Positions 6,730 through 26,151 are shown, counted from the stretch's first letter. The stretch: 64,000 nt of DNA from Polyangiales bacterium (GCA_038231275.1 JBBRLQ010000004.1:96001-160000); one strand, 5' to 3'. Notes: generated from the letters alone by a model not told the origin. A program made the numbers and translations.

Positions 6730-6738
6730 CTCCCGAGG

Positions 6739-10446: not shown

Positions 10447-11148
10447 ATGCGTGGCGCGCGTTCAGGGATCGTGACCGCAGCGCTTTCGATCTTTATTCTC
10501 CCGGCCGTGGCCGAGCGCGACGATGCGACGAAGCGCGCGCGAGACCAGGAGCGGGCGCGCGAAGAGACGCGCGACGAGGAGCGTGGCCTCGTGTCACGCG
10601 CGCAGGCCGGCGACAAGCAGGCGATGGGCGAGCTCTTCCAGCGGTTCGGCCCCGGGCTCTACCGTAGCGTGCTCCTGCCGCGCCTCGGCTCGGAGGCGGC
10701 GGCGAAGGACGCGCTCGGCGAGACGTACGCCAAGGTCATCACCCGCATCCACCAGTTCACCTGGCAGAACGTCGGGTTCTATCCTTGGCTGCGCACCGTC
10801 GCGCTCCGCGTCGCGCTCGATCAGCTCCGCGCGCGCAAGAGGCTCGTGGTGTGGGAGGAGGATGACGTCGCGCGCGAGCTCGACGCCGCCGCCACGACGA
10901 CGCCGATCGATCAACAGGTCTCCGATCGGCGTGACCGTGACGCCGTCCGCGCGAAGCTGACCCGCGCGCTCGAGCAAATTCATCCGCGCTATGCGCGAGC
11001 GGTCCGACTTCGCGTCCTCGAGGAGCGCCCGCGCGAGGAGGTCGCCCAGATGCTCGAGGTGACGCCTGCGACGTTCGACGTGCTACTTCATCGAGCGATC
11101 GGCGCACTCAAGAAGAAGATGTCCGAAGACGCCGAGGTTGAGTCATGA
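10447..11148 (+). CDS. ECF-type RNA polymerase sigma factor
   Basis: LVSRAQAGDKQAMGELF, AKDALGETY, FYPWLRTVA (region 2); EEVAQMLEVTPATFDVLLHRA (region 4). Start uncertain (ATG 10447 or GTG 10471). Confidence 0.88.
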   Translation: MRGARSGIVTAALSIFILPAVAERDDATKRARDQERAREETRDEERGLVSRAQAGDKQAMGELFQRFGPGLYRSVLLPRLGSEAAAKDALGETYAKVITRIHQFTWQNVGFYPWLRTVALRVALDQLRARKRLVVWEEDDVARELDAAATTTPIDQQVSDRRDRDAVRAKLTRALEQIHPRYARAVRLRVLEERPREEVAQMLEVTPATFDVLLHRAIGALKKKMSEDAEVES

Positions 11149-11681
11149 GCGACAAGCCGAAACCCTTGCCTGAGCCCGCGTGGCTTGACGACCCTGACGC
11201 GCCGCCGTCGGAGGAGGAGAAGATCGCGTCGGCGCGACTGCGCGACGCGCTGGGCGATCCGAAGATCCCGAACGCGGACGCGGAGCTCGCGCGCGCGCTG
11301 TCGCTCGCCGACGAGCCGCGTCCTCTCGCGGAGGAGGAGCACCGCGCGATCGTGGAGCGGAGCCTCGCGACCGCGAAGCCGCGCGGGCAGGTGATCCGGG
11401 TGGCCTTCGGCGTCGCCACGGCCGTTGCCCTCGCGGCGGCCGCCGTCCTCGTACTCGGGAGGCTCGACATGGCAGAGGCGCCGCGTGCGGCCGACATGCG
11501 GGCGGCTGGGCCGGTCCGGATCGCGTCGCTTGCGCCTGTCCGCTCGACGCAGGAGCTCTTCGACGAGCCGTTCGCCAAACCGCTCTCGCGCGGCGCCGCG
11601 AGCGCGCGGATCGATCGGATCGCGATGGCGCGCGCCGGCGATTTGCGCGAAAACCGCTTCGCGATGTGGGGCGTCCGATGA
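11145..11681 (+). CDS. Putative single-pass anti-sigma factor
   Basis: ATGA-coupled to the ECF gene; cytoplasmic N-terminus, one TM (VAFGVATAVALAAAAVLVLG), short C-terminus. Confidence 0.6.
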   Translation: MSDKPKPLPEPAWLDDPDAPPSEEEKIASARLRDALGDPKIPNADAELARALSLADEPRPLAEEEHRAIVERSLATAKPRGQVIRVAFGVATAVALAAAAVLVLGRLDMAEAPRAADMRAAGPVRIASLAPVRSTQELFDEPFAKPLSRGAASARIDRIAMARAGDLRENRFAMWGVR

Positions 11682-12289
11682 ACCTGTTCGACCGGCCCGG
11701 AACCGCCGTGTGGAGCACGATCCTCGCGCTCGCCCTCGCGATCGGCGCGGGGTGCGCGAAGAAGGACGCGGCGCCCGGGAGCGCACCGTCGCCCGCCGCC
11801 GCGGTGCTCGACGCCAGCGGAACCGTCGATCTCGAGGTCATGGCGTTCCTCTCCGAGGCCCGCGCGCTGCACCACGAGGCGAACATCCGCGAAGACGAAG
11901 GAGACCTCCCGAGCGCCATCACCGTGATGCGACGCCTCGTCGGCGCGACCCGGCCCCACGCCGGCGAAAGCGTGCCCGAGGTCCTCGAGGTGCTCGCCGA
12001 CGCGTGGGCCCGCATCGCCGAGCTCGAATTGAAGCGCCGCGATCTGGACGAGGCCGCTAAGGCCGTGAAGGAAGGCCTCGCCCATGCGCCCGACGCCACG
12101 TACTTCCGCGGGCACCTTCTCGAGGTCGAGGGCGTCATCGAAGAGGCGCGCGCCGCCGATTTTTCGGACGCGGGCAAGAAGGACGACGCGCAGCGCGCGC
12201 GGGCGCGGGCGATCGCGCTCTTGCAGGAGGCGGTGAAGGTGCAAGAGCAGGTGATCGGTCGCGCGCTCGGCGATGGGGGGAAACGATGA
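11678..12289 (+). CDS. TPR-like helical lipoprotein
   Basis: Lipobox GAGC; TPR-like helices (LADAWARIAELEL...AAKAVKEGL); ATGA overlap. Confidence 0.7.
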   Translation: MNLFDRPGTAVWSTILALALAIGAGCAKKDAAPGSAPSPAAAVLDASGTVDLEVMAFLSEARALHHEANIREDEGDLPSAITVMRRLVGATRPHAGESVPEVLEVLADAWARIAELELKRRDLDEAAKAVKEGLAHAPDATYFRGHLLEVEGVIEEARAADFSDAGKKDDAQRARARAIALLQEAVKVQEQVIGRALGDGGKR

Positions 12290-12747
12290 AGCTCGATCGA
12301 TGCGTCTGCGCGGTGGGGCTCGTCGCGATCGTGACCGCGGCGTGCGGCGGGGCGGCAAAGAGCGCGTCGGAGCCCGCGAGCCCTGCGACGAGCGCGCCCC
12401 CGGGATACGCGCCGCTACCCGCCCCCGGCGGCGCTGCAGGCACCGGGACGGGGGCCGCGCCTTCGCGCGAGGCAACTCTGTCCGTCGCGCGCGGCGATCT
12501 CGAGTCCGCGCAGCGCGAGCTGGACGTCGCCGCGGGTGACTGCATGGCCGCGTGCCGCGCGCTCGGCGCGATGGATCGTGCGACGGGACACCTCTGCGGG
12601 TTGGTCCAAGAGAGCGACGAGCGAACGCGCTGCGAGGAGGCCAAGAACAGAGTCCGTGGCGCGCGCGACAAGGTGCGCACGACGTGCGGCACGTGCCCCG
12701 GCGGCGTGAGCGTCGATCGCAACGCGCCGGTGCCGACCGAACGATGA
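12286..12747 (+). CDS. Small Cys-containing helical lipoprotein
   Basis: Lipobox TAAC; CMAACRAL...LC...RC...CGTC; ATGA overlap. Confidence 0.7.
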   Translation: MKLDRCVCAVGLVAIVTAACGGAAKSASEPASPATSAPPGYAPLPAPGGAAGTGTGAAPSREATLSVARGDLESAQRELDVAAGDCMAACRALGAMDRATGHLCGLVQESDERTRCEEAKNRVRGARDKVRTTCGTCPGGVSVDRNAPVPTER

Positions 12748-13715
12748 CCGCGGGCGCGATCGATCTCCGCGAGCGCGGCGGGGCGTGGGGCCGAGCGCAG
12801 GCGCTCAAGAACGACGTGATCTACGGCGTCGTGTGCGTCGCGCTCGCGGTCTGTCGTCCGCTGCCCGCGCGCGCGCTGCGCGTCCTCGGGCGAACGATCG
12901 GCCGCGTCGCGCACGTGATTTTCCGGCGCGCGCGGCGGATCGCGCGCGAGAACGTCGCCCTCGCCTTCCCCGCGCTGAATGACGAGGAGCAGGGCGCGCT
13001 CGTTCGACGCTCGTTCCTCGCGCTCGGCGAGCACCTCGGTGCCGCAATCGCCTCGCTCCGGCCTGACGCGACGCTCGTGCCCCTCGATCTCGGGGACGCC
13101 GATCTCGCGGTCATCGAGGAGGCCCTCGCCGGCGGTCGCGGGGTGGTCTTCGCGTCGGCGCACCTCGGCGCGTGGGAGCGTCTCGGCGCCACCCTCGTCG
13201 CCGCCGGAGTGCCGCTCACGACGATCGCCCGCGAGGCCTACGACCCGCGCCTCGACGCGATTTACGATCGCCTCCGCGGAGGACGCGGCGTGCGCGCGAT
13301 CTACCGCGGGCGTCCCGGCGCAGGCGCGCGGATGGTCCGCGTGCTTCGCGACGGCGGCGTGCTCGGCGTCCTCATGGACCTCCGCTCACGCGTCCCGTCG
13401 ATCGACGTTCCGTTTCTCGGTCACGACGCGCCCACCGCGATCGGCCCCGCGCGCTTGGCGCTCCGCACCGGCGCCGCCGTGATCGTGGGCGCGTGCGCTC
13501 CGGGGGGCCGGACCCGGATCGAGCGCGTGTGCACCGCCGACCTCGCGACCCTGCCCGACCCCTCCGCCCGCGCGCGCGCCTTGACCGCCCGCATCAACGA
13601 AGCGCTTTCGCGATTCATCCTCGACATGCCGGAGGGCTGGGTCTGGATGCACGAACGGTACGCGCGAAGCTCACGTCTCGGTCAAGCGGCAAAGGCGAAC
13701 CGCTCGATTTCGTGA
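12744..13715 (+). CDS. Lipid A-type (LpxL/HtrB family) acyltransferase
   Basis: ARENVALAFP, SAHLGAWE (HxxxxE), LGVLMD, VPFLG, PEGWVWMHER; ATGA overlap. Confidence 0.88.
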   Translation: MTAGAIDLRERGGAWGRAQALKNDVIYGVVCVALAVCRPLPARALRVLGRTIGRVAHVIFRRARRIARENVALAFPALNDEEQGALVRRSFLALGEHLGAAIASLRPDATLVPLDLGDADLAVIEEALAGGRGVVFASAHLGAWERLGATLVAAGVPLTTIAREAYDPRLDAIYDRLRGGRGVRAIYRGRPGAGARMVRVLRDGGVLGVLMDLRSRVPSIDVPFLGHDAPTAIGPARLALRTGAAVIVGACAPGGRTRIERVCTADLATLPDPSARARALTARINEALSRFILDMPEGWVWMHERYARSSRLGQAAKANRSIS

Positions 13716-13748
13716 ACGGATCGGCTGGGGACGACATACACTGAACAC

Positions 13749-15308
13749 GTGGCTCAAGGCGCACGGGTCCCCAAAATGGCGGCCAGCGTCGGCGACCTGC
13801 GCTCGCTCCCGCTGGCTCCCGTCGACGGCTTCATCCTCACCCGGGTGAACGGCGTGTCGTCCGTCCGCGAGATCTCGTCGCAGACCGGGGTGTCGGAGGA
13901 CGATGTCGCCGGTTCGCTCATCAAGCTCGCGGGGTTCGGCGTCGTCGAGTTCGTGGGGGAAGGCCGGTTCGCTCCGGCTCCCTTGCCGCCGCCCGAGGAG
14001 GCCATCTACGGCGCGAGCAGGCCCCCACCGCTTTTGACGGAGGTGATGGCGGCGGCCTCCGCGATCTACGACCCCGCGGAGCTCGACGAAGAGTGCGATC
14101 TCGAGCCCGACGAGCGCCGGCGGATCCTCGAGCTCTTTTACCGCCTCGACGACGTGAACTACTACCAGCTGCTCGGCGTCGCCCGGAGCGCGGACCGCAA
14201 GACGATCAAGCGCTCGTACTTCGAGCTCGCTGCGCACTTCCACCCCGACAAGCACTTCCGGAAGAAGCTCGGCGCGTTCAAGCAGAAGATGGAGATCATC
14301 TTCGGCCGGGTGACCGAGGCGCACGACACGCTCACGTCGAAGGAGAAGCGCCCCGAGTACGACCAGTACCTCGAGGTCCAGGAGCAGGCGCGGGGCATCG
14401 AGGCGATGATGGCGAACGCCCAGGCCGACGCCGCGCGCGCGCGCGACGAGCTTCGCCGGGAGATCCCGAGCTCGCCACCTCCCGGGCGTCACACGCCGTC
14501 GATTGCGTACGATCCGAGGCGCGAGGAAGAGGCCGCCCGCGCTGCGCCGGCGCCCCAGGCCTACCAGCCCCCGCCCATGCGCCCGCCGACCGCGTCGCAG
14601 CCGCTCGCGACACCGGCGGCCACCCCCGTCGATCCGCGCCAGGCACGCGAAGCGCTCGCGCGACGACTCCGCGGCGCCACTGCCAAGCCGCCACCGAGGC
14701 CACCGATGTCGAGCGCGCCGTCCGTCGCGACGCAGGACGCGATGGACGCGCTGAAGCGCCGCTACGACGACCGCCGCGCCGACGCCGCCAAGCTCCAGGC
14801 GCAGAAGTACAAGGAGGCCGGCGACGCCGCCCGCGCCAGCAAGGACATGGTGAGCGCCGCCAACGCCTACCGCGTCGCCGTCAGCTTCGACGGAGAGGAT
14901 CCCGAGCTCCAGCGCCTCTTCAAGATGACGCAGGAGGCGGCCGACATGGCCCTCGCCGACTTCTACATGAAGCAGGCGACCTACGAGGAGCGCAACGATC
15001 GGTGGCCAGAGGCCGCGCGCTCGTGGGCGCGCGTCGCCAAGACGAAGGCCGACAACGCCGCGGTCCACGACAAGCTCGCCAACGCCATCCTCAAGTCCAA
15101 CGGCAACCTCCACGAGGCTGCCGCCGCCGCAAAGCACGCCATCGAGTACGGCTCGGCGATCGTCTCCTACCGCCTCACCCTCGTGAACATCTACGTCGCC
15201 GCCGGCCTCATCATCGCCGCAAAACGCGAGCTGGAAGAGGCGGTCCGGATGGAGCCCAACAATCGGGCAGTGGCCGCGCTGGTAAAACAACTCGAAAATA
15301 CAGGGTGA
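13749..15308 (+). CDS. J-domain co-chaperone: N-terminal wHTH-like domain, J domain, Pro-rich linker, TPRs
   Basis: YYQLLGV...IKRSYFELAAHFHPD...EAHDTL with an intact HPD; C-terminal TPR-like helices. Confidence 0.9.
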   Translation: MAQGARVPKMAASVGDLRSLPLAPVDGFILTRVNGVSSVREISSQTGVSEDDVAGSLIKLAGFGVVEFVGEGRFAPAPLPPPEEAIYGASRPPPLLTEVMAAASAIYDPAELDEECDLEPDERRRILELFYRLDDVNYYQLLGVARSADRKTIKRSYFELAAHFHPDKHFRKKLGAFKQKMEIIFGRVTEAHDTLTSKEKRPEYDQYLEVQEQARGIEAMMANAQADAARARDELRREIPSSPPPGRHTPSIAYDPRREEEAARAAPAPQAYQPPPMRPPTASQPLATPAATPVDPRQAREALARRLRGATAKPPPRPPMSSAPSVATQDAMDALKRRYDDRRADAAKLQAQKYKEAGDAARASKDMVSAANAYRVAVSFDGEDPELQRLFKMTQEAADMALADFYMKQATYEERNDRWPEAARSWARVAKTKADNAAVHDKLANAILKSNGNLHEAAAAAKHAIEYGSAIVSYRLTLVNIYVAAGLIIAAKRELEEAVRMEPNNRAVAALVKQLENTG

Positions 15309-15344
15309 GATACCCTGAGACAACGTCGCCAGACACAAGCGATT

Positions 15345-15373
15345 TTTCCAAAACGCCGTCGTCCCTCTAGAAT
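15345..15373 (+). promoter_or_regulatory. Candidate sigma70-type promoter for the dnaK paralogue
   Basis: TTTCCA-N17-TAGAAT in the J/dnaK intergenic region. Confidence 0.4.
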
Positions 15374-15454
15374 CAACGGGTCACGGCCAATCCATTCTTG
15401 GCGTGGACGCTCCGCACGCGCGCGGACGACCACCGAGTACGACGGGAGACGACC

Positions 15455-17278
15455 TTGGAGAAGGTGATCGGAATCGACCTGGGAACGACGAACTCGTGCG
15501 TCGCCATCGTGGAGAACGGGACGCCGAGCGTGATTCCCAATCGGGGGGGATACAAGACGACACCGTCGATGGTGGCTGTCACCGAGGCCGGCAAGCGCCT
15601 CGTGGGGCACATCGCCAAGCGTCAGGCGATCACCAACGCCGAGAACACCGTCTATGCGGCCAAGCGCCTCATCGGACGAAAGTGGAACTCGCCGCAGGTG
15701 AAGAACGCCGTGGCGACGTCGAGCTACCGCATCGTGGAGGGCCCGCACCACGACGTGCGCATCGTGCTCCGGGACAAGGAGTACTCGGTCCCCGAGATCA
15801 GCGCGATGGTGCTCCAGGAGATGAAGATCATCGCCGAGGACTACCTGGGCGAGACGGTCAGCAAGGCGGTCGTCACCGTCCCCGCGTACTTCAACGACAA
15901 CCAGCGCCAGGCGACGAAGGACGCGGGCGAGATCGCCGGGCTCGACGTCATCCGCATCATCAACGAGCCGACGGCGGCGGCGCTCTCCTACGGCTTCGGC
16001 CGCAACATGGAGAAGGTCGTCGCTGTGTACGACTTCGGCGGCGGCACGTTCGACATCTCGATCCTCGAGATCGGCGCGCACGGCGTCTTCAAGGTCATCG
16101 CGACGGCCGGCGACACGTTCCTCGGCGGCGAGGACGTCGACGCGCGCATCATCGACTGGCTCGTGCAGGGCTTCAAAGAGGAGCACAACCTCGATCTGCG
16201 CCAGGACCGAATGGCGCTGCAGCGGCTGAAGGACGCCGCCGAGAAGGCCAAGTGCGAGCTCTCGAGCGTGAAGGAGACGGAGGTGAACCTCCCCTTCATC
16301 ATCTCGAGTGGCCGCAACGAGGCGCTCCACCTCCAGAAGACCCTCACGCGCGTCACGCTCGAGGAGCTGAGCGACGACCTCATCGAGCGCACGGTCGACA
16401 TCTGCCGCCAGACGCTCGAGGACGCCAAGCTCGAGAAGGACGAGATCGAAGAGGTCGTGCTCGTCGGTGGCATGACGCGCATGCCCAAGATCCAGTCCGC
16501 GGTGGCGACGTTCTTCGAGCGCGAGCCGTGCAAGGGCGTGCACCCCGACGAGGTCGTCGCCCTCGGCGCCGCGATCCAGGGCGCCGCGCTCATGGACGAC
16601 AAGCAGGAGATGGTCCTCCTCGACGTCACGCCGCACGCGCTCGGCATCATGACGTTCGGCAGCATCTTCGAGGAGCTCATCCCGCAGAACACAACAGTCC
16701 CCACGCACCGCACGAAGATCTTCACCACCAGCCGTGACAACCAGACGGCCGTAAAGATCCTCGTCATGCAGGGCGAGAGCACGAACGCCGAGGAGAACGA
16801 GCTGCTCGGCGAGTTCATCCTCACCGGCCTAAGGCGCGCGCCCAAGGGCACGGTCGAGATCGAGGTGACCTTCGAGATCAACGCGGACGGCATCGTCAGC
16901 GTGCGCGCGAAGGATCTCGAGACCGGCCTCGAGCAGTCGATCCAGGTCACCGCGACCAGTGGCCTGACGCGCGAAGAGATCAAGGGGATGATCGACAACG
17001 CGAAGGACGACGTCGTCGATCGCCGCTCGAGCGAGGAGTTCGAGGCCGCCAAGCAAGAGGCCGAGAAGATCGTCGGCGAGATCGAGAAGCTCTTCCCGCA
17101 GGTGGAGCAGATCGTCGCGTCGAGCGACTTCGGTCGCGACGCGATCGAGAAGGCGCGCGCCATCGTGGAGCGCGCACGGCAGGCCATCATCAAGAAGGAC
17201 GTGGCGGCCATCAAGGAGCAGATCGACGGTCTCACCCGAACCCATCGGATGTTCAAGGGGGTCGTCGCGAAGACGTAA
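15455..17278 (+). CDS. dnaK: Hsp70/DnaK family chaperone (paralogue with a shortened C-terminus)
   Basis: GIDLGTTNS, TVPAYFND, INEPTAAAL, DFGGGTFDIS, LLDVTP linker, DNQTAV. TTG start preceded by GGGAG. Confidence 0.95.
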   Translation: MEKVIGIDLGTTNSCVAIVENGTPSVIPNRGGYKTTPSMVAVTEAGKRLVGHIAKRQAITNAENTVYAAKRLIGRKWNSPQVKNAVATSSYRIVEGPHHDVRIVLRDKEYSVPEISAMVLQEMKIIAEDYLGETVSKAVVTVPAYFNDNQRQATKDAGEIAGLDVIRIINEPTAAALSYGFGRNMEKVVAVYDFGGGTFDISILEIGAHGVFKVIATAGDTFLGGEDVDARIIDWLVQGFKEEHNLDLRQDRMALQRLKDAAEKAKCELSSVKETEVNLPFIISSGRNEALHLQKTLTRVTLEELSDDLIERTVDICRQTLEDAKLEKDEIEEVVLVGGMTRMPKIQSAVATFFEREPCKGVHPDEVVALGAAIQGAALMDDKQEMVLLDVTPHALGIMTFGSIFEELIPQNTTVPTHRTKIFTTSRDNQTAVKILVMQGESTNAEENELLGEFILTGLRRAPKGTVEIEVTFEINADGIVSVRAKDLETGLEQSIQVTATSGLTREEIKGMIDNAKDDVVDRRSSEEFEAAKQEAEKIVGEIEKLFPQVEQIVASSDFGRDAIEKARAIVERARQAIIKKDVAAIKEQIDGLTRTHRMFKGVVAKT

Positions 17279-17287
17279 CGCAGCGCC

Positions 17288-18376
17288 GTGGGACACGAAC
17301 CGAAAGACGGAGAGCCGAAGTCGTCGGAAGAGGAGCCCGACGAGCGGCCGACCGTCGTCCCGAAGTTCGACCCTGCGGAGCTCGCGCGTGAGACGGCGTC
17401 GAGCTCGCAGAGCCCGTCGAACCCGACCGTCCCGGTGAAGCACGGCGACCTCCCGCGCGATTTGCATGGTGAACGCACGCTGGTGCGGAGCGCGGCGCCC
17501 GACAGCGCGGCGCCGGAGACGACGCAGATGCCCGAGTCGATGCGCTCGAGCCTGCTCTCGATGGCGGACTCGCGTGTCCCGTCGGTGAAGCCGCAGCGGC
17601 TGCCGTCGGTCGGCGGGCTCGCGGTCTCGTCGCTCGACCGCGGGTGGGAGGAGCTGACGCTCGACGAGCCGATCTCGAACCAGCCGAACACCAAGCCATC
17701 GCCGAGCGACGGGCCGTTTCGGCGCGAGACGAGCCGCCTCCGCGCGCCCGCGGGGCAGCAGGTGGTGGCCGAGGACGAAGAGGCAGAGAAGCCGACACGC
17801 GAGCACCCGGTGCTGCCCGACGGAGCCACGCCGTCGGCGCGCGGAATCGCCCGGGAGGACGACGGCGCGCAGCGGCACGAGACGCCCGAGCACACGGTCT
17901 TCGCGCCGGCGCGCGCTGCGGCGGCACTCACGGCGCCGTCCAACCGGCCGAAGCCGATGAGCGATCCGCCGGCGAGCTTGGAGGCGGCGACGGCACTGAC
18001 GCCGGAGGAGACGATCCGCGAAATGCGCGATCGCTTCTCGCTCGGTGACTACACGGGCGCGCTGGTGCTCGCCGACGGCCTGCTCGAGGACGATCCCAAC
18101 AACCCCGAGGTGAAGGAGTGCGCGGAAAACTGCCGGCAGGTGCTGCGGCAGATGTACACCGCGCGCATCGGTCCGCTCGATCGCGTGCCGATGGTGACCG
18201 TCGCGCGCGACCAGCTGCGCTGGCTCTCGATCGACCACCGCGCGGGCTTCGTGCTCTCGCACATCGACGGCATCTCGAGCCTAGAGATGATCCTCGACGT
18301 CAGCGGCATGCCCCTCCTGGACGCCCTCCGCATCCTCTGTGAGCTGGCACAGCAAAGAATCATCTCGTTTCGCTGA
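17288..18376 (+). CDS. Hypothetical protein: long disordered N-terminus, TPR-like hairpin, C-terminal wHTH-like domain
   Basis: Pro/Ser/Glu-rich first ~230 aa; ordered C-terminus GFVLSHIDGISSLEMILDVSGM; 9 bp after dnaK. Confidence 0.8.
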   Translation: MGHEPKDGEPKSSEEEPDERPTVVPKFDPAELARETASSSQSPSNPTVPVKHGDLPRDLHGERTLVRSAAPDSAAPETTQMPESMRSSLLSMADSRVPSVKPQRLPSVGGLAVSSLDRGWEELTLDEPISNQPNTKPSPSDGPFRRETSRLRAPAGQQVVAEDEEAEKPTREHPVLPDGATPSARGIAREDDGAQRHETPEHTVFAPARAAAALTAPSNRPKPMSDPPASLEAATALTPEETIREMRDRFSLGDYTGALVLADGLLEDDPNNPEVKECAENCRQVLRQMYTARIGPLDRVPMVTVARDQLRWLSIDHRAGFVLSHIDGISSLEMILDVSGMPLLDALRILCELAQQRIISFR

Positions 18377-18525
18377 TCCCGCGATGCGGCGCATCGTGAG
18401 GATTCTCTCACCGCGCGGTCCACGCTCGTCGTGGACGGCGCGGTAGCATCGCGCTCGTCCCACGCAAGCTGAATTTCCCTGCGATTCGATTTCGACGCGT
18501 CCGGCTGGAATGCGCGTTGCACCGC

Positions 18526-19590
18526 ATGGATCGGGACGCTAAACCAAGCTTCGCGACGATGGAGGAGAAGCCGGCAGAGACATCGAGGTTGCGTCGAGAC
18601 GTCGAGGGCGCCTTGCGACGCGCGCTCGACCCGTCGGACGTCCTCCCGCTCTTGCATCGCCTCGCGCGGAGCGCGGCGCCGGGGACCGATGAGAGCGTCT
18701 TCGCGCACCGCCACCTCGCAGAGCTGATCGCGGCGCGTCACCCCTGGCGGGCCGCGCTCTACGCGCGTCGCGTGACCGCCGAGCGACCCGACGACGATCG
18801 CGCGTGGGCCGTGCTCGCGCTCTGCCAGACCCTCCTCGCGAACTACCGATACGCGGCGGCGAGCTATCAGCGCGCCCTGTCGTGCGCGCCGAAGAACCCT
18901 TGGTACGCACACAACCTCGGCCACTTGCTCGACGTGGCGCTCGGCCGACCGCAGGAGGCGCTGGGGTGGCTGCGCACCGCGTACGCCGGCGCGCCCAACC
19001 ATGGAGAGATCGCCACCAGCCTCGCGCACGCGCTCGCGCGCGCAGGTCTTCTCGGAGAGGCGAAGAAGGTGCTCGGCCGCGCGATGCGCAAGAGCGCGTC
19101 GAGCGAGCAGCAGGCACTCTGGCGATGGATTGAGCAAGGCGCGCCGGCGGACAAGCGCGCGGCGCGATCCAAGCCCACGATCGTTCCGCTGCCCGGCACC
19201 GAAGACGTAGGGCCGGCGAGCGCTAGCGCTACGCGTCGTCCGAGGCGCGTGAGACCGGCGGCGAAGGACCTCGTCCGTCAGCAGGTGACGGCGCTTCACG
19301 CGGCGCTCGATCGCGGCTTGGAAAATCTCCCGCTCGCGCCGCGTCAACGCGCGCGGGCACGTGCGCTCGCGCGCGACGTCGTGTCGCGCGAAGTGTTCGC
19401 GCGCAGCGGCGCGAGTGAGGACGGTACGCTGCGCACGCAGGCTGTCGCCTCCGCGATCGCCTACGCGATCGTCTGGCTCGACGACGTGCCACTGACGCAA
19501 GCGGAGGTCGCCGCCCCTTTCCGCGTGAGCGTCGCTCGTCTGCGCGGGCGCTTCGCCGAGCTCCGCTCGAAGCTGGGACTCGTCACGTAG
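18526..19590 (+). CDS. TPR protein with a C-terminal TFIIB/cyclin-like HTH domain
   Basis: TPRs (AWAVLALCQTLLANYRYAAASYQRAL; YAHNLGHLL); C-terminus AVASAIAYAIVWLDDVPLTQAEVAAPFRVSVARLRGRFAELRSKL. Confidence 0.8.
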   Translation: MDRDAKPSFATMEEKPAETSRLRRDVEGALRRALDPSDVLPLLHRLARSAAPGTDESVFAHRHLAELIAARHPWRAALYARRVTAERPDDDRAWAVLALCQTLLANYRYAAASYQRALSCAPKNPWYAHNLGHLLDVALGRPQEALGWLRTAYAGAPNHGEIATSLAHALARAGLLGEAKKVLGRAMRKSASSEQQALWRWIEQGAPADKRAARSKPTIVPLPGTEDVGPASASATRRPRRVRPAAKDLVRQQVTALHAALDRGLENLPLAPRQRARARALARDVVSREVFARSGASEDGTLRTQAVASAIAYAIVWLDDVPLTQAEVAAPFRVSVARLRGRFAELRSKLGLVT

Positions 19591-19681
19591 CAGGCTCATC
19601 CCTAGGCGCTCCGAGGAGAAACGCGCCGCTCACGGTAAATTCGGAAATTTGCCTGGCGAGTTGTGCGACAACACGCGGGAC

Positions 19682-21130
19682 ATGCGCGCACGGATTCCGC
19701 TCGTTTTCCTCGCCCTCGCCGCCGGCACCGCCACGGTGATGCTCTGCGCGTCTCCCGCGCTCGCCCAGCCGGCCCCGACGTCGCCCGCGCCGCTCCCCCC
19801 GCCCGGCGCCGAGCCGCCGATCGTCATCCCGCCGCTGCCGGACGTGAACGATCCCATGCTCGCGCCGATGCCACCGGCGACCAAGAACCTCGCAACGCTG
19901 GAAGAGGCGCTCACGTTGGTGAAGGCGCGCTCCACGGATCTACGGGTCGCGTACCTCGAGACCGAGCGCGCGGCCGGGCAGACGCGCGTGGCGCTGGCCG
20001 GGCTCCTCACGACGATCAACGGCAACGTCACGGTGACGAAGAACCTGATCACGCGGACGGCCACGCAGCCCGCGCTCGTCGGCGGTGGCCTCGGCACCGT
20101 CAGCGTGACCACGCCGACATCGGATCCATTCCTGACGGGCGGGGTCACCGTCATCCAGCCGATCGTCAATCTCCGCAACTATCACAACTGGAAGACGGCG
20201 CAGGAGTTCGAGAAGGTCCAGAAGCTTAGCCTCGAGGACGTGCAGCGCAACTTGGCCCTCAACCTCGCGAACGCGCTCGTCGGCGTCGTCACCGCGGAGC
20301 GCGTCGCCGAGCTCAATCGCGCGAGCTTTCGCACGACCCTCGAGCGTCTCGATCTCACGAGGCGGCGCCGTACGCTCGGCGCGGCGACCGGCCTCGACGT
20401 CGCGCGCGCGCAGCTCGACGTCGAGACGGCGCGCGCCAGCATCGTCACGGGCGACGAGTCGCTGCGCCAGTCGCGCGAGGCGCTGGGCTTGGCGGTCGGC
20501 ATGCCGCAACAGGTCGGCGTCTCAAAGCAGCTCGACATCAACGGCCTCGAGCACGCCGCGCTGACGTCGTGCCGCGTCGCGCCGAGCCTCGAGGCGCGCG
20601 CCGACATCGCCGCCGCACGCCAGCGCGTCATCGTCGCCGCCCGCAACCACGACAACGTGAAGCTCCAGTTCTTGCCGACGCTCAACGCCGTAAGCGGCCT
20701 CAACACCACGACGCTCGACACCGGGAGCGCCTACCCCACCACCTGGAACATCCAGGCCGTCCTCGCCGTGCCGCTGTGGGAAGGCGGCGCGCGGTATGGC
20801 CTCCTCCGAGATACCGAGGCGCAGACGCGCGAGGCGGAGATGAGCCTCGAGTCGCTCCGCAGGAACGCGACCGTGCAGCTCGAACAAGCCAAGCGTGGCG
20901 TCTCCGTGGCCGATGCGTCGCTCAAGGTCGCCACCGACCACCGCGCCCTCGCGGCCGAGACCGACAGGCTCGTGCGCGCCGGTTATGCGGAGGGTCAGTT
21001 CACCAGCCTCGACTTGGTGACCGCCGCCGCGACGCTCCGCAACGCCGACATCGATCTCGCGCTGAAGGAGTTCGGGCTGGTGCAGGCGCGCATCTTGGCG
21101 ATCCTCTCGCTCGCGACTTGTCCCTTCTGA
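19682..21130 (+). CDS. TolC-family outer membrane efflux protein
   Basis: Signal peptide, TLEEALTL, ATGLDVARAQ, VPLWEGG, YAEGQFTSLDLVTA. Confidence 0.88.
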   Translation: MRARIPLVFLALAAGTATVMLCASPALAQPAPTSPAPLPPPGAEPPIVIPPLPDVNDPMLAPMPPATKNLATLEEALTLVKARSTDLRVAYLETERAAGQTRVALAGLLTTINGNVTVTKNLITRTATQPALVGGGLGTVSVTTPTSDPFLTGGVTVIQPIVNLRNYHNWKTAQEFEKVQKLSLEDVQRNLALNLANALVGVVTAERVAELNRASFRTTLERLDLTRRRRTLGAATGLDVARAQLDVETARASIVTGDESLRQSREALGLAVGMPQQVGVSKQLDINGLEHAALTSCRVAPSLEARADIAAARQRVIVAARNHDNVKLQFLPTLNAVSGLNTTTLDTGSAYPTTWNIQAVLAVPLWEGGARYGLLRDTEAQTREAEMSLESLRRNATVQLEQAKRGVSVADASLKVATDHRALAAETDRLVRAGYAEGQFTSLDLVTAAATLRNADIDLALKEFGLVQARILAILSLATCPF

Positions 21131-21195
21131 GCGGCCCTTGAAGCGAACATCGTCTTCACGGAAGGGGCAGACGACGGTAGCGACACACCAGCGGT

Positions 21196-22671
21196 CTACG
21201 TACCCGTCGGCGCCGCCGAGTCCCATCCGCTGACGCGCGCGAGGTCCGACAGGGCCACGTTGTACTCCATGAGCGCGTACATGTGCTGGACGCGCGCGTT
21301 GATGTAGATGCGAAGGGGCTCGTTGAGGGAGTTCTCGTTCTTCGTGCCGAGATCGATCGCGTCTTGCACCGTGCTGATCCATTGCTTGGAGCGGTGCTCC
21401 GCGCGCATCCACGACTCCTCGCGATTCTTCGTCTCGAGGACGACGGCGTACGCGTTCTCGACCTCGACGCCGATGCCGCCGAGCGCGTAGCGGAGCGTCG
21501 CCCGCGACTCCTCGAGATCGGCCTCGGTGCGTGCGACACGCGCGGCGTTCGGCAAGATGTCGAGGCTCCACCGCGCGCCGAACGCGCCGCCAAGGTAGAA
21601 GTGGTTCGGGTTGCCGAGGAGGGCGGTCGACTGGGTCGTGATGCTCGGATAGACGCCGTAGCTCGCGCCGAGGCCAATGCCGATGTCCGGAAAATACCGG
21701 GCGCGCTGGAGATCGACGAGCGCCTCTCGCGCGACGACCGCGGCGCGCGCCTGCGCAACCTCCGGCCGGAAGAGGCGCGCGGCCGAGAGGTAACGTACGA
21801 CCGGCGCGAGCGGCACGTCGGGGCGCTTGAGCGGCTCGTCGGGGATGTCGAACGACGACTGCACGCCGGTGAAGAAGCGGAGCGCCGCCAGCGCATACGT
21901 CTCGCCTCGCCTCGCCTCGCCCGCGCGGGCCGTGACCTCGTCGCGGTAGATGAGGAGGCGCAGCTTGTCGATCTCGTCGAGGCCGCCGTCGCCCTTCTCG
22001 ATCTTTGCGGCAATGCCCTCGATGGCCTTGCCGAGGCGCGCCAGCGCGTCGTCGATCACGTACTTGGCGTCGCGCGCGAGCTGGAGGCCGAAGAACGCGC
22101 GGCGCACGTCCATGCGCGCAACGTTCCGCCACTTCTCGATGTCCCACTCGCTGACGCGGACCTGCGCCTCCGCGGCGCGGCGGCCGGCGTCGATCTTGCC
22201 GAACGTGTAGAGCGGGATGACGCCGTTGATGTCGACGGTCGTGAAGGGCTGCCACCCGGGACCGAAGCCGGCGTTCAGGATCGTGTTGACGTTCTGCGAC
22301 GTGTAGACGGGCGTGCCGGCAACCGGTGGCGCGATGCCGGTCGTCGCGCCGGCGTTCCACTGCCAGAACGGGAGCCACTTCGCCTCGTCGAGCTGAGCGT
22401 GCGCGCTCGAGAGGCGCGCGCGCGACGCCCACAAATTGGGGTGGTTGCGATCGGTGAGCGCAAGGCACTCGGCCAGCGTGTAGGTCCGCGGCTTGATCGT
22501 GACGATCGGCGCCTGGTAGGTGCCGAGGCCGCCGTCGTCGCCCTTCTTGCTGTCGTCGGCCTTCTTCGTGTCGTCGTCGTCGAGGTCGAACGGCCCCGCG
22601 AACGCCGCCGGCGCGACTGCGCAAATGACGGACCCGACGAGAATCGACGTAAGGAACTTCCAAGTGCGCAT
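21196..22671 (-). CDS. TolC-family outer membrane protein
   Basis: TLAECLALTDRNHPNL, IPLYTFGKI, RPEVAQARA, YNVALSDLARVSG. Confidence 0.85.
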   Translation of the reverse strand: MRTWKFLTSILVGSVICAVAPAAFAGPFDLDDDDTKKADDSKKGDDGGLGTYQAPIVTIKPRTYTLAECLALTDRNHPNLWASRARLSSAHAQLDEAKWLPFWQWNAGATTGIAPPVAGTPVYTSQNVNTILNAGFGPGWQPFTTVDINGVIPLYTFGKIDAGRRAAEAQVRVSEWDIEKWRNVARMDVRRAFFGLQLARDAKYVIDDALARLGKAIEGIAAKIEKGDGGLDEIDKLRLLIYRDEVTARAGEARRGETYALAALRFFTGVQSSFDIPDEPLKRPDVPLAPVVRYLSAARLFRPEVAQARAAVVAREALVDLQRARYFPDIGIGLGASYGVYPSITTQSTALLGNPNHFYLGGAFGARWSLDILPNAARVARTEADLEESRATLRYALGGIGVEVENAYAVVLETKNREESWMRAEHRSKQWISTVQDAIDLGTKNENSLNEPLRIYINARVQHMYALMEYNVALSDLARVSGWDSAAPTGT

Positions 22672-22727
22672 GGCGCCGGGGGGACGTTAGAGCAGAAGTC
22701 GCTCGAACGGAACGGGCAAACGACGTG

Positions 22728-23768
22728 TCAGGTCCCCTCGCCGCCCATGGGATCCTTCATCGCGCCGGGGGTGTAGATGAAGCCCTTCTGCTGGAACACG
22801 CACAGCCGCCCGCCGCCGTCGCGCTTTGCCTGGAGCAGCGCCGTGTCGGCGGCTTTGAGGAGCGCGTCCTTCGTGCGCACGTCGCGGCTCGGGAAGAGCG
22901 CGACGCCGAGCGACACGCTGACGCGCGCGGGACCGCCCGGAAGCTCCCATGCGCGGGCGCCGACGTCCTTCCAGATGCGCTCGGCGACCGACAGCGAGCC
23001 CGCGAAGTGCGTGGCCGGCAAGAGAACGAGGAACTCGTCGCCGCCGTAGCGCGTGACGACGTCGCTCTCGCGCACGCTCTTGCGGATGACGTCGGCGACG
23101 CCGCGAAGCACCGCGTCGCCGAACGCGCGGCCGCCGCGATCGTTGCTCGCCTTCAGCCGGTCGATGTCGAGGACGCAACACGAGAGCGGCTCGTGCTGGC
23201 GCTCGGCCTTCTTGAACTCGTCGGCGAGGCGCGTGTGCAGGTAGCGGTAGTTGTAGAGTCCGGTGAGCTCGTCGTGGACGCTGACGCGCTCGAGCGTCGC
23301 GCGCGCGGACTGCATCTCGTCGTGCAGGCGCTTGATGCGGAGCATCCCGTCGACACGCGCGAGGACCTCGGCCTCCTCGAAGGGCTTGCAGACGTAGTCG
23401 TCGGCGCCGCACTTGAGACCCTCGACGCGGCTCGCCGGATCGGTGCGCACGGTGGCGAGGATGACGGGGACGAACGACTTGTCGGCCATCCCCTTGAGGA
23501 TGCGGCACGCCTCGATGCCGTTGACCCTCGGCATGGTCGCGTCGACGAGGACGAGATCGACGCCACCCTTCGCGACCCGGTCGACTGCCTCTTGTCCGTC
23601 CGCGACGGTGTCGACGTCGTACCCCGCCGCCCGCAGCATCTCGCCGAGGCGCTCGCGGGTGACGTCGTCATCGTCGGCGACCACGAGGCGCGGCCGGCGC
23701 GGGGGCGCGGGCGAAGGGATGCGCCCGACGAGGTCCCGTGTGGAGTCGCGCGGCGGCCGCAGAGGCAT
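22728..23768 (-). CDS. REC-GGDEF diguanylate cyclase response regulator
   Basis: REC motifs VADDDD, LVDATMP, YVCKPF; DELTGLYN; I-site RESD; intact GGDEF. Start uncertain. Confidence 0.93.
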   Translation of the reverse strand: MPLRPPRDSTRDLVGRIPSPAPPRRPRLVVADDDDVTRERLGEMLRAAGYDVDTVADGQEAVDRVAKGGVDLVLVDATMPRVNGIEACRILKGMADKSFVPVILATVRTDPASRVEGLKCGADDYVCKPFEEAEVLARVDGMLRIKRLHDEMQSARATLERVSVHDELTGLYNYRYLHTRLADEFKKAERQHEPLSCCVLDIDRLKASNDRGGRAFGDAVLRGVADVIRKSVRESDVVTRYGGDEFLVLLPATHFAGSLSVAERIWKDVGARAWELPGGPARVSVSLGVALFPSRDVRTKDALLKAADTALLQAKRDGGGRLCVFQQKGFIYTPGAMKDPMGGEGT

Positions 23769-23862
23769 CCGCTGCAAGATGCAGCCTTTGCCTCAAAGGG
23801 GCAACTTCGACTTGGTGTTTGCCGCACTTGTGCGAGGGCGCGAAGCGGAGCCACAATGCGCC

Positions 23863-26151
23863 GTGGGGCGCAAACCGGACCTGTTCGCGGACCGCTACGA
23901 GGTCCTGGATCTCGTGGCCGTGGCGCCCACGGCGGCGGTCTACCGAGCGAACGATCGCCTCCTCGGACACGCGGTGACCCTCAAGATCCTGCGCAAAGAT
24001 CTCGCGGGCGCGGCGCTGGCGGTGAGCCGGTTTCGACACGACGCGCTCCTCGCGCGGCGAATCGCACACCCCAACGTCGCGCGCGTCCTCGACGTCGGAG
24101 AGCATGGCGGCGCGCACTACGTCGTCCGCGAGCTGGTCGCAGGCGAGTCGCTCGACGTCCTCCTCGAGGCGAAGTCCTCCCTGCCCCAAGACCGCGCGGC
24201 GCGGATCGCCCTGCAGCTCGCGCGCGCGCTCGCAGCGGCGCATGAACGAGGGATCGCGCACTGCGATCTCGTCCCGGAGAACATCGTGGTCGATTCGCGG
24301 GGCGGTGTCGTGTTGACCGACTTCGGCGCCGCGCGCGACCGCGCAGGATCGGCGCCCGAGCTACGAGAGGGGCACGCGGCGACCGAGCGCGCGGATCTGT
24401 ACACGCTCGGCACGCTCCTCTACCAGATGCTCACCGGCGCGCCCCCGTGGGGGCGGCGCGGCGGCGTCGCCAGTGGTGCGGCTCGCCACTCCGTCGTTCC
24501 GACGCGGCCGCACGACTTCGATCCGAAGATCGGCGTCGAGCTGTCGACCCTCGTCATGATGCTGCTCGAGCGCGAGCCGTCAAAGCGCCCCGAGAGCGCG
24601 CGGGCGGTCGAGGCGACGTTGACGCGAATCGCGCCAGCGGCCGCCGCACCATCGAAGCCGCCGACTCCCCCGGCCCCTGTTCCCAAACCAGCCCCGACGT
24701 CGGCGCGGACGCCATCCTCTCGCCGCGAGCCGACGAGCGCGCGCCCGCGCCGTCCTCGCGCGGTCGCCGTGATCGTCGCCGACGATGGCGTTGGAAAGCG
24801 CCGGTTCGTTGGCGACGCCCTCGCGTCGGCGATCGTCGACCGTATGTCGGCGATTTCGTCCATCCGCGTCCTCACTCCCTCCGCCGACGCGGACGAGCGC
24901 GGAGAAGAGGATCCGCGGCTCGCGGCGCTCCGGATGGGCGCCGACGTGGTCCTCAGCGGGTCGCTCCATCTCCGCGCGAGCGAGGACGCTCGGTTCTCGG
25001 TCGATCTGCTCTCCGTCGAGAGCGGTGAGCTCCTCTGGCACGCCGAGATCGTGCGCTCGCTCAAGGAGCTCTTCAAGATCGCGGACGAGGTGGTCACCGG
25101 CGCGGCCCACGCGCTCGATCGGCAGGCGGCGCCGCCGCGGTCGGGCGTTCCGGAGCCGGACCCGAGCGACGTCGACCCCTACCTGCGCGCGCGCGGACGA
25201 CTCGCCGAGTACACGAAGGAGGCTTCCGACGACGCCGAGCGAGGCCTCGCCGCGGCCTTCCTCCGCGCTCCGAACGATCCCGCACTGGCATGCTGGCTCG
25301 CGCTTGCGAAGCTTCAGCGATGGGCGTTCGATCCTGCACTTGGACAAGGCGACGAAGCGGCGCCGGTGGTGGCCGAGCGAATCGCGCTGGAGGTGCTGAA
25401 GCGTTCTCCCGCGGCGGCCGAGGCCCACTTGGTCCTCGCGACGCTCGCCGATGCGCGAGGCGATGCGGCGAGCGCGATGCGCCACGCGCGCGCGTCGGTC
25501 CGATCGTCGCCGACCTTGGCCGACGCGCACGCGCTGATCGGGCGCCTGCGGGTGGAGGCGAACGACGTCATCGCCGGCGAGAGGGACCTGGAGGTGGCGC
25601 TCGGGTTGAGCACGCACGTCGTCACGCTGCTCGCGCTCGCGCGCACGCGCGGACTGCTCCAGGATTTCGAGCGCGCCGCGGAGTCGCTCTACCTCGTCGA
25701 CGCGAAGGTGCCGGGGCACCTCGGGGCGGCGCTCGTCCGGATGGAGGCCGCGGCGTGGAGCCTCGATCCGGCAACTGCGGCGCGGGCCCGTGCGCGCGCG
25801 CTGGAGGTCACGGCCACCTGCACCGGCACGCTGGTGCACGCCATCCGCGCGCGCGCGGGCCTCGACGTCGATCGGGAGCTCGGCGCGCTCACCGCCGTGT
25901 GCGCGACGCCCGGGTGCACGGCGCGCAGCCGCGCATGGCTGCTTCAGTGCATCTGCGAGGTGCGCGCGGCGGCCGGAGATCCGGCGGGCGCAATCAGCGC
26001 GCTCCGCGACCTCGACGAGGCCGGGTCGATCGACGCGTTGTGGCTTGAGAGCTGCCCTGCCCTCGCGCCGCTGCGCGCGCTGAGCGGGTTCTCCACCGCG
26101 CGCGCGGCGATCCTGGCGCGGGCCGATCTCGCGCTCGACGCGCCGGCGTGA
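23863..26151 (+). CDS. Degenerate Ser/Thr kinase-like domain + TolB-N-like domain + TPRs
   Basis: DRYEVL, VTLKIL, HPNVARVLDVG, HCDLVPEN, DFG, ADLYTLG, followed by TPRs. Start uncertain (GTG 23863 or ATG 23779). Confidence 0.8.
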   Translation: MGRKPDLFADRYEVLDLVAVAPTAAVYRANDRLLGHAVTLKILRKDLAGAALAVSRFRHDALLARRIAHPNVARVLDVGEHGGAHYVVRELVAGESLDVLLEAKSSLPQDRAARIALQLARALAAAHERGIAHCDLVPENIVVDSRGGVVLTDFGAARDRAGSAPELREGHAATERADLYTLGTLLYQMLTGAPPWGRRGGVASGAARHSVVPTRPHDFDPKIGVELSTLVMMLLEREPSKRPESARAVEATLTRIAPAAAAPSKPPTPPAPVPKPAPTSARTPSSRREPTSARPRRPRAVAVIVADDGVGKRRFVGDALASAIVDRMSAISSIRVLTPSADADERGEEDPRLAALRMGADVVLSGSLHLRASEDARFSVDLLSVESGELLWHAEIVRSLKELFKIADEVVTGAAHALDRQAAPPRSGVPEPDPSDVDPYLRARGRLAEYTKEASDDAERGLAAAFLRAPNDPALACWLALAKLQRWAFDPALGQGDEAAPVVAERIALEVLKRSPAAAEAHLVLATLADARGDAASAMRHARASVRSSPTLADAHALIGRLRVEANDVIAGERDLEVALGLSTHVVTLLALARTRGLLQDFERAAESLYLVDAKVPGHLGAALVRMEAAAWSLDPATAARARARALEVTATCTGTLVHAIRARAGLDVDRELGALTAVCATPGCTARSRAWLLQCICEVRAAAGDPAGAISALRDLDEAGSIDALWLESCPALAPLRALSGFSTARAAILARADLALDAPA

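Follow-up and report, generated by a model that had tools for sequence, protein, structure and literature searches.

A stretch of 64,000 nucleotides from a Polyangiales bacterium (GCA_038231275.1, JBBRLQ010000004.1:96001-160000; below called the window) contains, between positions 13749 and 19590 counted from its first nucleotide, four open reading frames (ORFs) that all lie on the + strand. They encode a J-protein (13749-15308), a DnaK paralogue (15398-17278 as the longest ORF), a protein that is here called the partner (17288-18376, 362 amino acids (aa)), and a protein combining tetratricopeptide repeats (TPRs) with a TFIIB-like domain (18517-19590, 357 aa; gene 4). Their third-position GC content is 0.84-0.94, as expected of coding sequence in DNA of about 70% GC. 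An earlier reading of the sequence, below called the original prediction, had described the four co-oriented genes as one chaperone module. The co-orientation is confirmed, and the unit conserved across the Myxococcota consists of the first three genes, J-protein, DnaK and partner. These probably form a dedicated Hsp70 module in which the J-protein and the partner appear to share a winged-helix domain.

The J-protein (519 aa) is predicted to contain an N-terminal winged-helix-like domain (13764-13955, aa ~6-69), a J domain (14157-14363), a Pro/Ala/Arg-rich linker, and a C-terminal TPR region (15099-15293, aa 451-515). Pfam DnaJ (PF00226) matches aa 137-205 with 54.5 bits (E 1.2e-14), and the HPD motif is found at aa 165-167. 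The NCBIfam DnaJ models cover the protein over only their first ~82 of 354 positions, far below their cut-off, so no part corresponding to the glycine/phenylalanine-rich (G/F) region or the zinc finger of housekeeping DnaJ was detected. Both the intact HPD and the lack of these parts had been pointed out in the original prediction. The protein thus appears to belong to class C, the J-proteins that have a J domain with HPD, and are without G/F, zinc-finger and DnaJ C-terminal domains. The match to TPRs is below the Pfam threshold, and a paralogue of the same architecture exceeds the TPR_19 cut-off.

The DnaK gene follows after 146 bp. Its true start is probably the TTG at 15455, giving a protein of 607 aa (15455-17278), since GGGAG is found 7 nt upstream and the orthologues begin with MERVIGIDLG. 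The gap between the two genes contains the only sigma-70-like site found in 11000-21300 (TTTCCA-17-TAGAAT, 15345-15373, + strand), where 0.3 would be expected; this is a consensus match only. PF00012 matches the protein with 701.5 bits over aa 23-614, and NF001413 with 776.4 bits against a cut-off of 648. Alignments with E. coli DnaK (E about 1e-171) and with mortalin extend over the full length, and the motifs IGIDLGTTNS, GGGTFD, and LLDVTP are present. It is accordingly predicted to be a complete Hsp70, with nucleotide-binding domain, interdomain linker, the β-part of the substrate-binding domain, and lid, without a C-terminal tail. It passes the NCBI PRK00290 model, while the score for the TIGR02350 equivalog is below the cut-off (750.8 vs. 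822.55). About a dozen Hsp70-like loci are found in the assembly, and two DnaK1-like copies among them score higher (853 and 813 bits).

The relationship to other DnaK proteins was assessed by a maximum-likelihood tree of 47 rows, with three lid-less proteins on long branches and a fourth of unusual composition excluded. The 31 DnaK sequences whose genes have the partner downstream (module DnaKs) are all found on one side of a branch with a support of 100/99, which was recovered in all 200 bootstrap trees. This separates them from seven DnaK1-like rows, including C1:587074 and C21:99699 of the same genome (contig and position), and from six SglK-like rows, including C1:113715. Quick trees with all rows agree, and the approximately unbiased test did not reject a single clade in which the three long-branch rows are included (p 0.94). 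The branching inside the clade tracks family, order and class, which is the pattern expected of vertical descent. The window protein thus appears to be a non-housekeeping paralogue belonging to a clade of its own, and the grouping with housekeeping DnaK that the original prediction had named as evidence to the contrary was not seen. In several Myxococcota families (L120-L125, L128) the module DnaK is only ~523 aa long, and most of the helical lid is missing.

The start codon of the partner (17288) is found 9 bp after the DnaK stop codon (17278). No match to the partner was found in Pfam or NCBIfam, and it displays likeness to TPR and winged-helix folds only, and none to GrpE. The N-terminal ~229 aa (17288-17974) are rich in Pro, Ala, Ser and Glu, poor in hydrophobic residues, and not conserved, and this part is apparently disordered. 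Orthologues share the C-terminus but span 144 to 928 aa, and their N-terminal part is between about 10 and about 800 aa long. The conserved part is the C-terminal 133 aa (17975-18376), predicted to form a TPR-like helical unit followed by a winged-helix-like domain (18164-18373). An AlphaFold2 model of these 133 residues has a predicted local distance difference test (pLDDT) score of 92.7 and contains three helices, then a strand/helix/strand domain. Residues 6-66 of the model superpose on single TPR units (VIA Z 8.6-9.7), and residues 64-133 on the winged helix of a GATOR1 subunit (VIA Z 9.8, root-mean-square deviation 2.1, 69 residues). A Foldseek search with the partner model gave a best E of 0.06, and none at E<=1e-3. 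In four genomes of family f46 (G106:C301, G111:C426, G151:C29, and G292:C65; genera g110, g131, and g142) the frame of the partner homologue is interrupted by one in-frame TGA each, which could be a sequencing artefact, a sign of two genes, or recoding.

The N-terminal domain of the J-protein and the winged-helix-like domain of the partner are homologous. BLASTP aligns aa 6-68 of the J-protein with aa 299-361 of the partner at 30% identity (E 6e-6), and hhalign, comparing 22 J-protein N-termini with 26 partner C-termini, gives a probability of 98.8 and E 7.2e-17 over 75 columns. In other genomes the partner profile locates the N-terminus of the J-protein about 4.5-5 kb from the partner. The original prediction had claimed such a common domain and named it wHTH (winged helix-turn-helix); the first claim is borne out by these alignments, while the name is reasonable as a statement about the fold, given the GATOR1 superposition and Pfam matches that are all sub-threshold. 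On the J-protein side these are to MarR_2 (7 of 22 orthologues), HTH_24 (six), and TrmB (six), and also to the Crp and IclR types, and on the partner side to TPR_14 and, in 5 of 26, to PqqD. Two other candidates for what the proteins have in common were rejected. PatA_N (PF14332), an Atlas lead (0.85-0.89), was absent among the best 25 of the 31 and 30 families matched at E<=10 by 26 partner and 22 J-protein sequences, respectively. A [FY]DPAEL motif is found in the J-protein (aa 107, within 14060-14090) and the partner (aa 27, within 17288-17400) of the window and in close relatives, and was dropped as it occurs in only 1 of 32 distant partner orthologues.

The winged-helix profile also finds other proteins encoded by the same genome. 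There is a second protein with winged helix, J domain and TPRs (C3:331259-333076), and the domain forms the C-terminus of a REC-DUF4388 (PATAN) protein (C1:682757-684985) and of an HD-domain protein (C1:719727-722807). In addition, C29:61954-62772 encodes a full paralogue of the partner with both TPR and winged helix, and about eight small proteins without any Pfam match contain the domain. None of the four proteins for which coordinates are given here adjoins an Hsp70. In G330, G336, G342, and G163 the sole TPR/winged-helix matches are weak and located away from any Hsp70.

Relatives of the partner C-terminus are common, with 1039 found at E<=1e-3 in the protein collection, and all the named ones are called "hypothetical." A profile from a narrow alignment finds it in 88 of 201 Myxococcota genomes at E<=1e-10, and one from a broad alignment in 312 of 401 at E<=1e-6 (311 of 400 without G525, a genome flagged as unpublished); these numbers count the domain, paralogues included. 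The closest public loci are titled Polyangiaceae, Labilithrix, or Myxococcales metagenome-assembled genome. The order J-protein, DnaK, partner is found in all 11 loci from the same family or order with enough flanking sequence. In all 20 loci from other families of Myxococcota the partner is immediately preceded by the DnaK gene, and the J-protein gene was found in 19 of these. Among the 80 closest public loci DnaK is upstream of the partner in 74 and a J-protein was seen in 59; in the remaining six the contig ends within 260 bases of the partner. The order is also kept in the more distant L158-L160, and DnaK is followed by the partner in five of five loci from Myxococcus and Corallococcus. 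The distance from the DnaK stop codon to the first start codon of the partner has a median of 16 bp and is at most 60 bp in 93 of 109 loci, while the median distance between the J-protein stop and the DnaK start is 58 bp (n=88). The conserved unit is thus these three genes, found across Myxococcota. Of the conservation of gene order that the original prediction proposed to examine for four genes, the part concerning the first three holds throughout the phylum; gene 4 accompanies them in 60 of the 80 closest loci, and was not found in either the 20 loci from other families or the 11 others from the same order or family.

The surroundings do not resemble those of a heat-shock operon. The CIRCE consensus (controlling inverted repeat of chaperone expression) has no match in the 64-kb window at up to three mismatches, and the sole GrpE found in the assembly is encoded on another contig (C1:115573), beside a different DnaK, the SglK-like C1:113715, which has grpE upstream. 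The claim that neither grpE nor CIRCE is found nearby is therefore upheld. No nucleotide-exchange factor is encoded with the module. The original prediction had listed hrcA as missing as well; no chaperone regulator was seen among 10 neighbouring ORFs scanned with Pfam, a scan that did not include a search aimed at hrcA as such.

The trio appears to be the Polyangiaceae version of MXAN_3015-MXAN_3016-MXAN_3017 of Myxococcus xanthus, a correspondence based on primer matches in congeners and an annotation table. In Data Set S2 of Pan 2021 (PMC8265645) MXAN_3015 is a DnaJ-domain protein (3541826-3543187), MXAN_3016 a DnaK (3543206-3545047), and MXAN_3017 a hypothetical protein (3545048-3545932), all on the + strand, with gaps of 18 and 0 bp. 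Gene order and strand are thus the same as in the window, and DnaK and partner are tightly coupled in both (0 bp in strain DK1622, 9 bp here). The 18-nt genomic part of the published downstream primer for the MXAN_3016 deletion matches records from Myxococcus sp. and Corallococcus. In these, a DnaK that is 54-56% identical to that of the window is followed by a homologue of the partner, with only 37-40% identity in the C-terminus (E 1e-18 to 1e-22). M. xanthus lacks the pair of gene 4 and a TolC-like gene found downstream in the window. In L173 and L233 the gene after DnaK begins with the 15 nt of the published primer and encodes 294 aa, the same length as MXAN_3017. In a quick tree, DnaK fragments from Myxococcus and Corallococcus group with the window DnaK in a set of 23 rows that contains module DnaKs only, with a support of 98 in the Shimodaira-Hasegawa-like approximate likelihood ratio test.

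MXAN_3016 is listed as "DnaK" without the PRK00290 signature, and is expressed at a low level and not induced by heat (PMC8265645). It failed to rescue an E. coli dnaK mutant, while both PRK00290 DnaKs of M. xanthus did, and deletion of the gene reduced sporulation and oxidative resistance (PMC8265645). MXAN_3015 has been described as a class-C J-protein of 453 aa (Pan 2024, PMC11019930). Data Set S2 gives expression as fragments per kilobase per million (FPKM) in two triples of samples, of which the second is taken to be the heat-shock samples, since the text reports an approximately sixfold induction of MXAN_3192. From the first to the second triple this housekeeping gene increases from about 1100 to about 6000 (5-6-fold) and MXAN_3015 from ~35 to ~59 (about 1.6-fold), while MXAN_3016 decreases from 11-12 to 4.5-6.3 and MXAN_3017 from 15-21 to 8.5-9.7 (about 2-fold) (PMC8265645). 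In the available parts of Pan 2021 and Pan 2024, MXAN_3015 and MXAN_3016 are treated singly, and MXAN_3017 and the shared domain are not mentioned; beyond its row in Data Set S2, MXAN_3017 has no occurrence in the searched main texts and supplements of either paper. Neither the trio, the partner protein nor the shared domain was found described in the open literature searched.

Since the DnaK belongs to a separate clade, the order of the three genes is kept throughout the phylum, and the M. xanthus transcripts of DnaK and partner fall where that of the housekeeping gene rises, the data support a dedicated Hsp70 set at this locus rather than a heat-shock operon. This part of the chaperone switch suggested in the original prediction stands; the remaining part, a four-gene unit controlling the product of gene 4, does not, as discussed below. 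It seems reasonably likely that the three genes make up a vertically inherited, dedicated Hsp70 module of the Myxococcota that works by docking. The J domain would trigger ATP hydrolysis in its cognate DnaK, and the common winged-helix domain would be a docking module that brings the J-protein and the partner together, either on each other or on one common target. The chaperone might then act on one defined client or assembly, which could be the disordered arm of the partner or something held by the arm or the TPRs, and not on unfolded protein in bulk. Nucleotide exchange might be spontaneous or borrowed from the GrpE of the cell. By analogy with M. xanthus, the physiological output is probably mild and linked to stress or development. 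A complex prediction with the C-terminal 133 aa of the partner (26-row alignment) and aa 1-78 of the J-protein (22 rows) gave a score of 0.01 relative to a mark of 0.32, in a run without controls, and counts neither for nor against pairing of the two.

Several observations weigh against such a module. Deletion of three other non-canonical hsp70 genes of M. xanthus gave the same phenotype as that of MXAN_3016, which the authors read as overlapping helper roles (PMC8265645). The identity of the heat-shock samples in Data Set S2 is deduced from the induction of MXAN_3192 and not read from the column headers. MXAN_3015 co-purified with only one of two bait DnaKs, MxDnaK1, and MXAN_3016 was not among the baits (PMC11019930); as MxDnaK1 is the housekeeping protein, the J-protein may serve other Hsp70s too. 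The increase of MXAN_3015 when MXAN_3016 and MXAN_3017 decrease, together with the promoter-bearing gap of 146 bp in the window, suggests that the J-protein need not share a transcript with DnaK and partner. The paralogues with TPR and winged helix that are encoded away from any Hsp70 indicate that the domain is not exclusive to the module. Finally, interaction among the three proteins is a proposal.

A different explanation is that the locus encodes a back-up for the general chaperone, that is, a low-expressed and partly redundant DnaK with a generic co-chaperone as partner, for instance a holdase or a substitute for the exchange factor, and with no dedicated client. The DnaK does retain every canonical Hsp70 element, the module lacks an exchange factor, and only one GrpE was found in the genome. 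The M. xanthus deletion phenotype is mild and common to other Hsp70 deletions, and the available interactome tables for DnaK include both MXAN_3015 and MXAN_3016 (PMC11019930). The partner, however, has the TPR and winged-helix folds as its only resemblances, and GrpE is not among them. Specialised Hsp70 systems are typically marked by a J-protein of class C that has targeting domains and by a partner that is tightly coupled and inherited together with the chaperone, and both are found here. The low expression without heat induction and the failure of MXAN_3016 to replace E. coli DnaK, which the two PRK00290 proteins could do, also argue for specialisation. A back-up chaperone is for these reasons considered unlikely.

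It would also be conceivable that the winged helices bind DNA, and that the J-protein and the partner are transcription or nucleoid factors recruiting Hsp70 to the chromatin. The fold matches winged helices, and the sub-threshold matches on the J-protein side are to DNA-binding wHTH families (MarR_2, HTH_24, TrmB, Crp, and IclR). PilZ-DnaK chaperones of M. xanthus are also said to work with a nucleoid protein in chromosome organisation. The best structural matches are, however, to winged helices of GATOR1/SEA subunits, which are engaged in protein-protein contacts, and 5 of 26 partners display a sub-threshold match to PqqD, a peptide-binding winged helix, while every Pfam match to a DNA-binding family is below its cut-off. 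The domain is moreover found at the ends of the HD-domain and REC-DUF4388 proteins, which agrees with a role in interaction. Conserved operator-like repeats were not seen. A hairpin with a 7-bp stem over the J-protein stop codon (15301-15317) was considered as an operator candidate and rejected, since only the window and L029, from the same genus, have it among the 26 related loci that were folded. DNA-bound regulators are thus considered a very unlikely explanation.

Gene 4 probably starts at the ATG at 18559 rather than at 18517, and the gene is single-copy in the genome. In the protein, TPRs (aa ~43-206) are followed by a disordered stretch (214-242) and by a single TFIIB-type cyclin repeat with helix-turn-helix (HTH) in aa 249-353 (19261-19575). 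In a structural model (pLDDT 87.5) the TPR array is joined by a disordered link to five helices at the C-terminus (aa 249-353); a Foldseek search with the whole model returned only TPR proteins. A profile made from the C-termini of 22 orthologues matches the archaeal TFB core (1d3u_B and 1ais_B) with E 3e-8. It matches both TFB cyclin repeats, HTH included (...PLTQAEVAA.FRVS...LRGRF.ELR...), with the best stretch on repeat 2, where 86 positions of the profile are aligned. The window copy scores 12.4 bits with Pfam TFIIB (PF00382; cut-off 23.6), and sub-threshold matches were found in 14 of the 22 orthologues. By these profile searches the protein seems to be TFIIB-like in fold and motif, as the original prediction had it for the C-terminal domain, and not a member of the TFB family, as it has one repeat, no zinc ribbon, and a TPR array as its N-terminus. 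No description of a bacterial protein with TPRs and a TFIIB repeat was found in the open literature searched.

Where gene 4 is found after the partner, the DnaK is at least ~82% identical to that of the window, and 50 of the 80 closest loci contain a TolC-like gene; gene 4 is restricted to one sub-clade of Polyangiaceae. In other lineages the partner is followed by genes encoding an M1 peptidase, a CNNM/CorC transporter, or argininosuccinate synthase. TPR domains are common modules of Hsp70 co-chaperones. It is nevertheless highly improbable that J-protein, DnaK and partner form a four-gene switch regulating the folding or activity of the product of gene 4 as a transcription factor, for although the genes are co-oriented, usually adjacent in the closest relatives, and the last of them ends in a TFB-like repeat with HTH, gene 4 is missing from the loci of most lineages, where the trio must work without it, the downstream genes there are unrelated (in the available M. 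xanthus annotation a MaoC gene on the opposite strand), and the gap between partner and gene 4 is 140-182 bp, with the TolC-like gene usually following gene 4. Gene 4 and the TolC-like gene are a clade-specific pair of neighbours with no evidence of module membership, and the TFIIB-like protein is not the target of the module but a curiosity of its own, confined to the clade.

The dedicated module has features in common with several described systems. The stk locus of M. xanthus (StkA-StkB-StkC) likewise encodes an Hsp70 paralogue closely followed by two small genes, and has a regulatory role in exopolysaccharide production that is not related to heat shock (PMC4319316). The 540-aa StkA precedes an SCP2-type protein of 141 aa and one of 89 aa, and no J-protein is described in the available part of that paper. 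With proteins of 607, 362, and 357 aa and no SCP2 match in the window, identity with stk was rejected; it is a different locus. GrpS-SglK of M. xanthus (MXAN_6672-6671) also contains a specialised, non-essential DnaK paralogue, although, according to the available descriptions, SglK is of the PRK00290 type and follows its own GrpE. Its counterpart in the present genome, C1:113715, is outside the module clade. Compared to the E. coli DnaK-DnaJ-GrpE system, the window has an Hsp70 alignable over the full length and a J-protein with HPD. It differs in that the J-protein is without the G/F, zinc-finger and C-terminal client-binding domains, neither GrpE nor CIRCE is found, the DnaK belongs to a non-housekeeping clade, and there is an extra partner gene. 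Cyanobacterial DnaK1, which acts on the PATAN-REC regulator PixG and on PilB, is also a non-essential DnaK paralogue used for regulation; canonical DnaJ1 and GrpE are encoded around dnaK1, and no winged-helix partner is described in the available text (PMC13710413).

The winged-helix domain at the end of a REC-DUF4388 (PatA_N) protein in the present genome provides a parallel to DnaK1-PixG, as a functional analogy only. The domain is found at the N-terminus of two proteins with winged helix, J domain and TPRs, and at the C-terminus of the partner and about ten other proteins. This opens for a wider, rather doubtful reading in which the winged helix would be dedicated to docking and connect a private Hsp70 machine to a network of signalling proteins, with J-proteins delivering winged-helix-tagged regulators to the paralogous DnaK. 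If the domains do pair, this would amount to ATP-driven remodelling, a chaperone switchboard for development and motility akin to cyanobacterial DnaK1-PixG.

Myxobacteria have up to about 15 Hsp70-like genes. For one of these paralogues the module supplies two defined partners that are inherited along with it, as well as a domain that may serve in recognition, and thereby turns a "helper with unknown specific function" into a testable system of three proteins, MXAN_3015-3017, in the tractable M. xanthus.

The four genes are part of a longer run of co-oriented + strand genes at 11.1-21.1 kb with a third-position GC content of 0.83-0.94. Upstream of the J-protein gene are found genes encoding a 178-aa protein without Pfam match (11145-11681), a small TPR protein (11666-12289), and an LpxL-type acyltransferase (12552-13715), and directly after gene 4 the run ends with the TolC-like outer-membrane factor (19649-21130). 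Among the 80 closest loci, 44 have the acyltransferase gene 5' of the J-protein gene, 21 that of the TPR protein, and seven that of the 178-aa protein; many of these loci end before the upstream genes could show, so the counts are minimum numbers. The three upstream genes together (11145-13715) recur in L015, L023, and L026, and are absent from the phylum-wide loci. A second TolC-like gene, divergently oriented, is also found among the neighbours. The surroundings (4153-6738 and 21196-26151) are rich in signalling genes, encoding a fusion of a Ser/Thr kinase and an nSTAND1 NTPase, a REC-GGDEF response regulator, and another Ser/Thr kinase. Elsewhere in the genome, C3:111715-113220 (L138) encodes a very divergent lid-less Hsp70 of 537 aa, preceded by a Ser/Thr kinase with HEAT repeats and followed by a J-protein of 242 aa.

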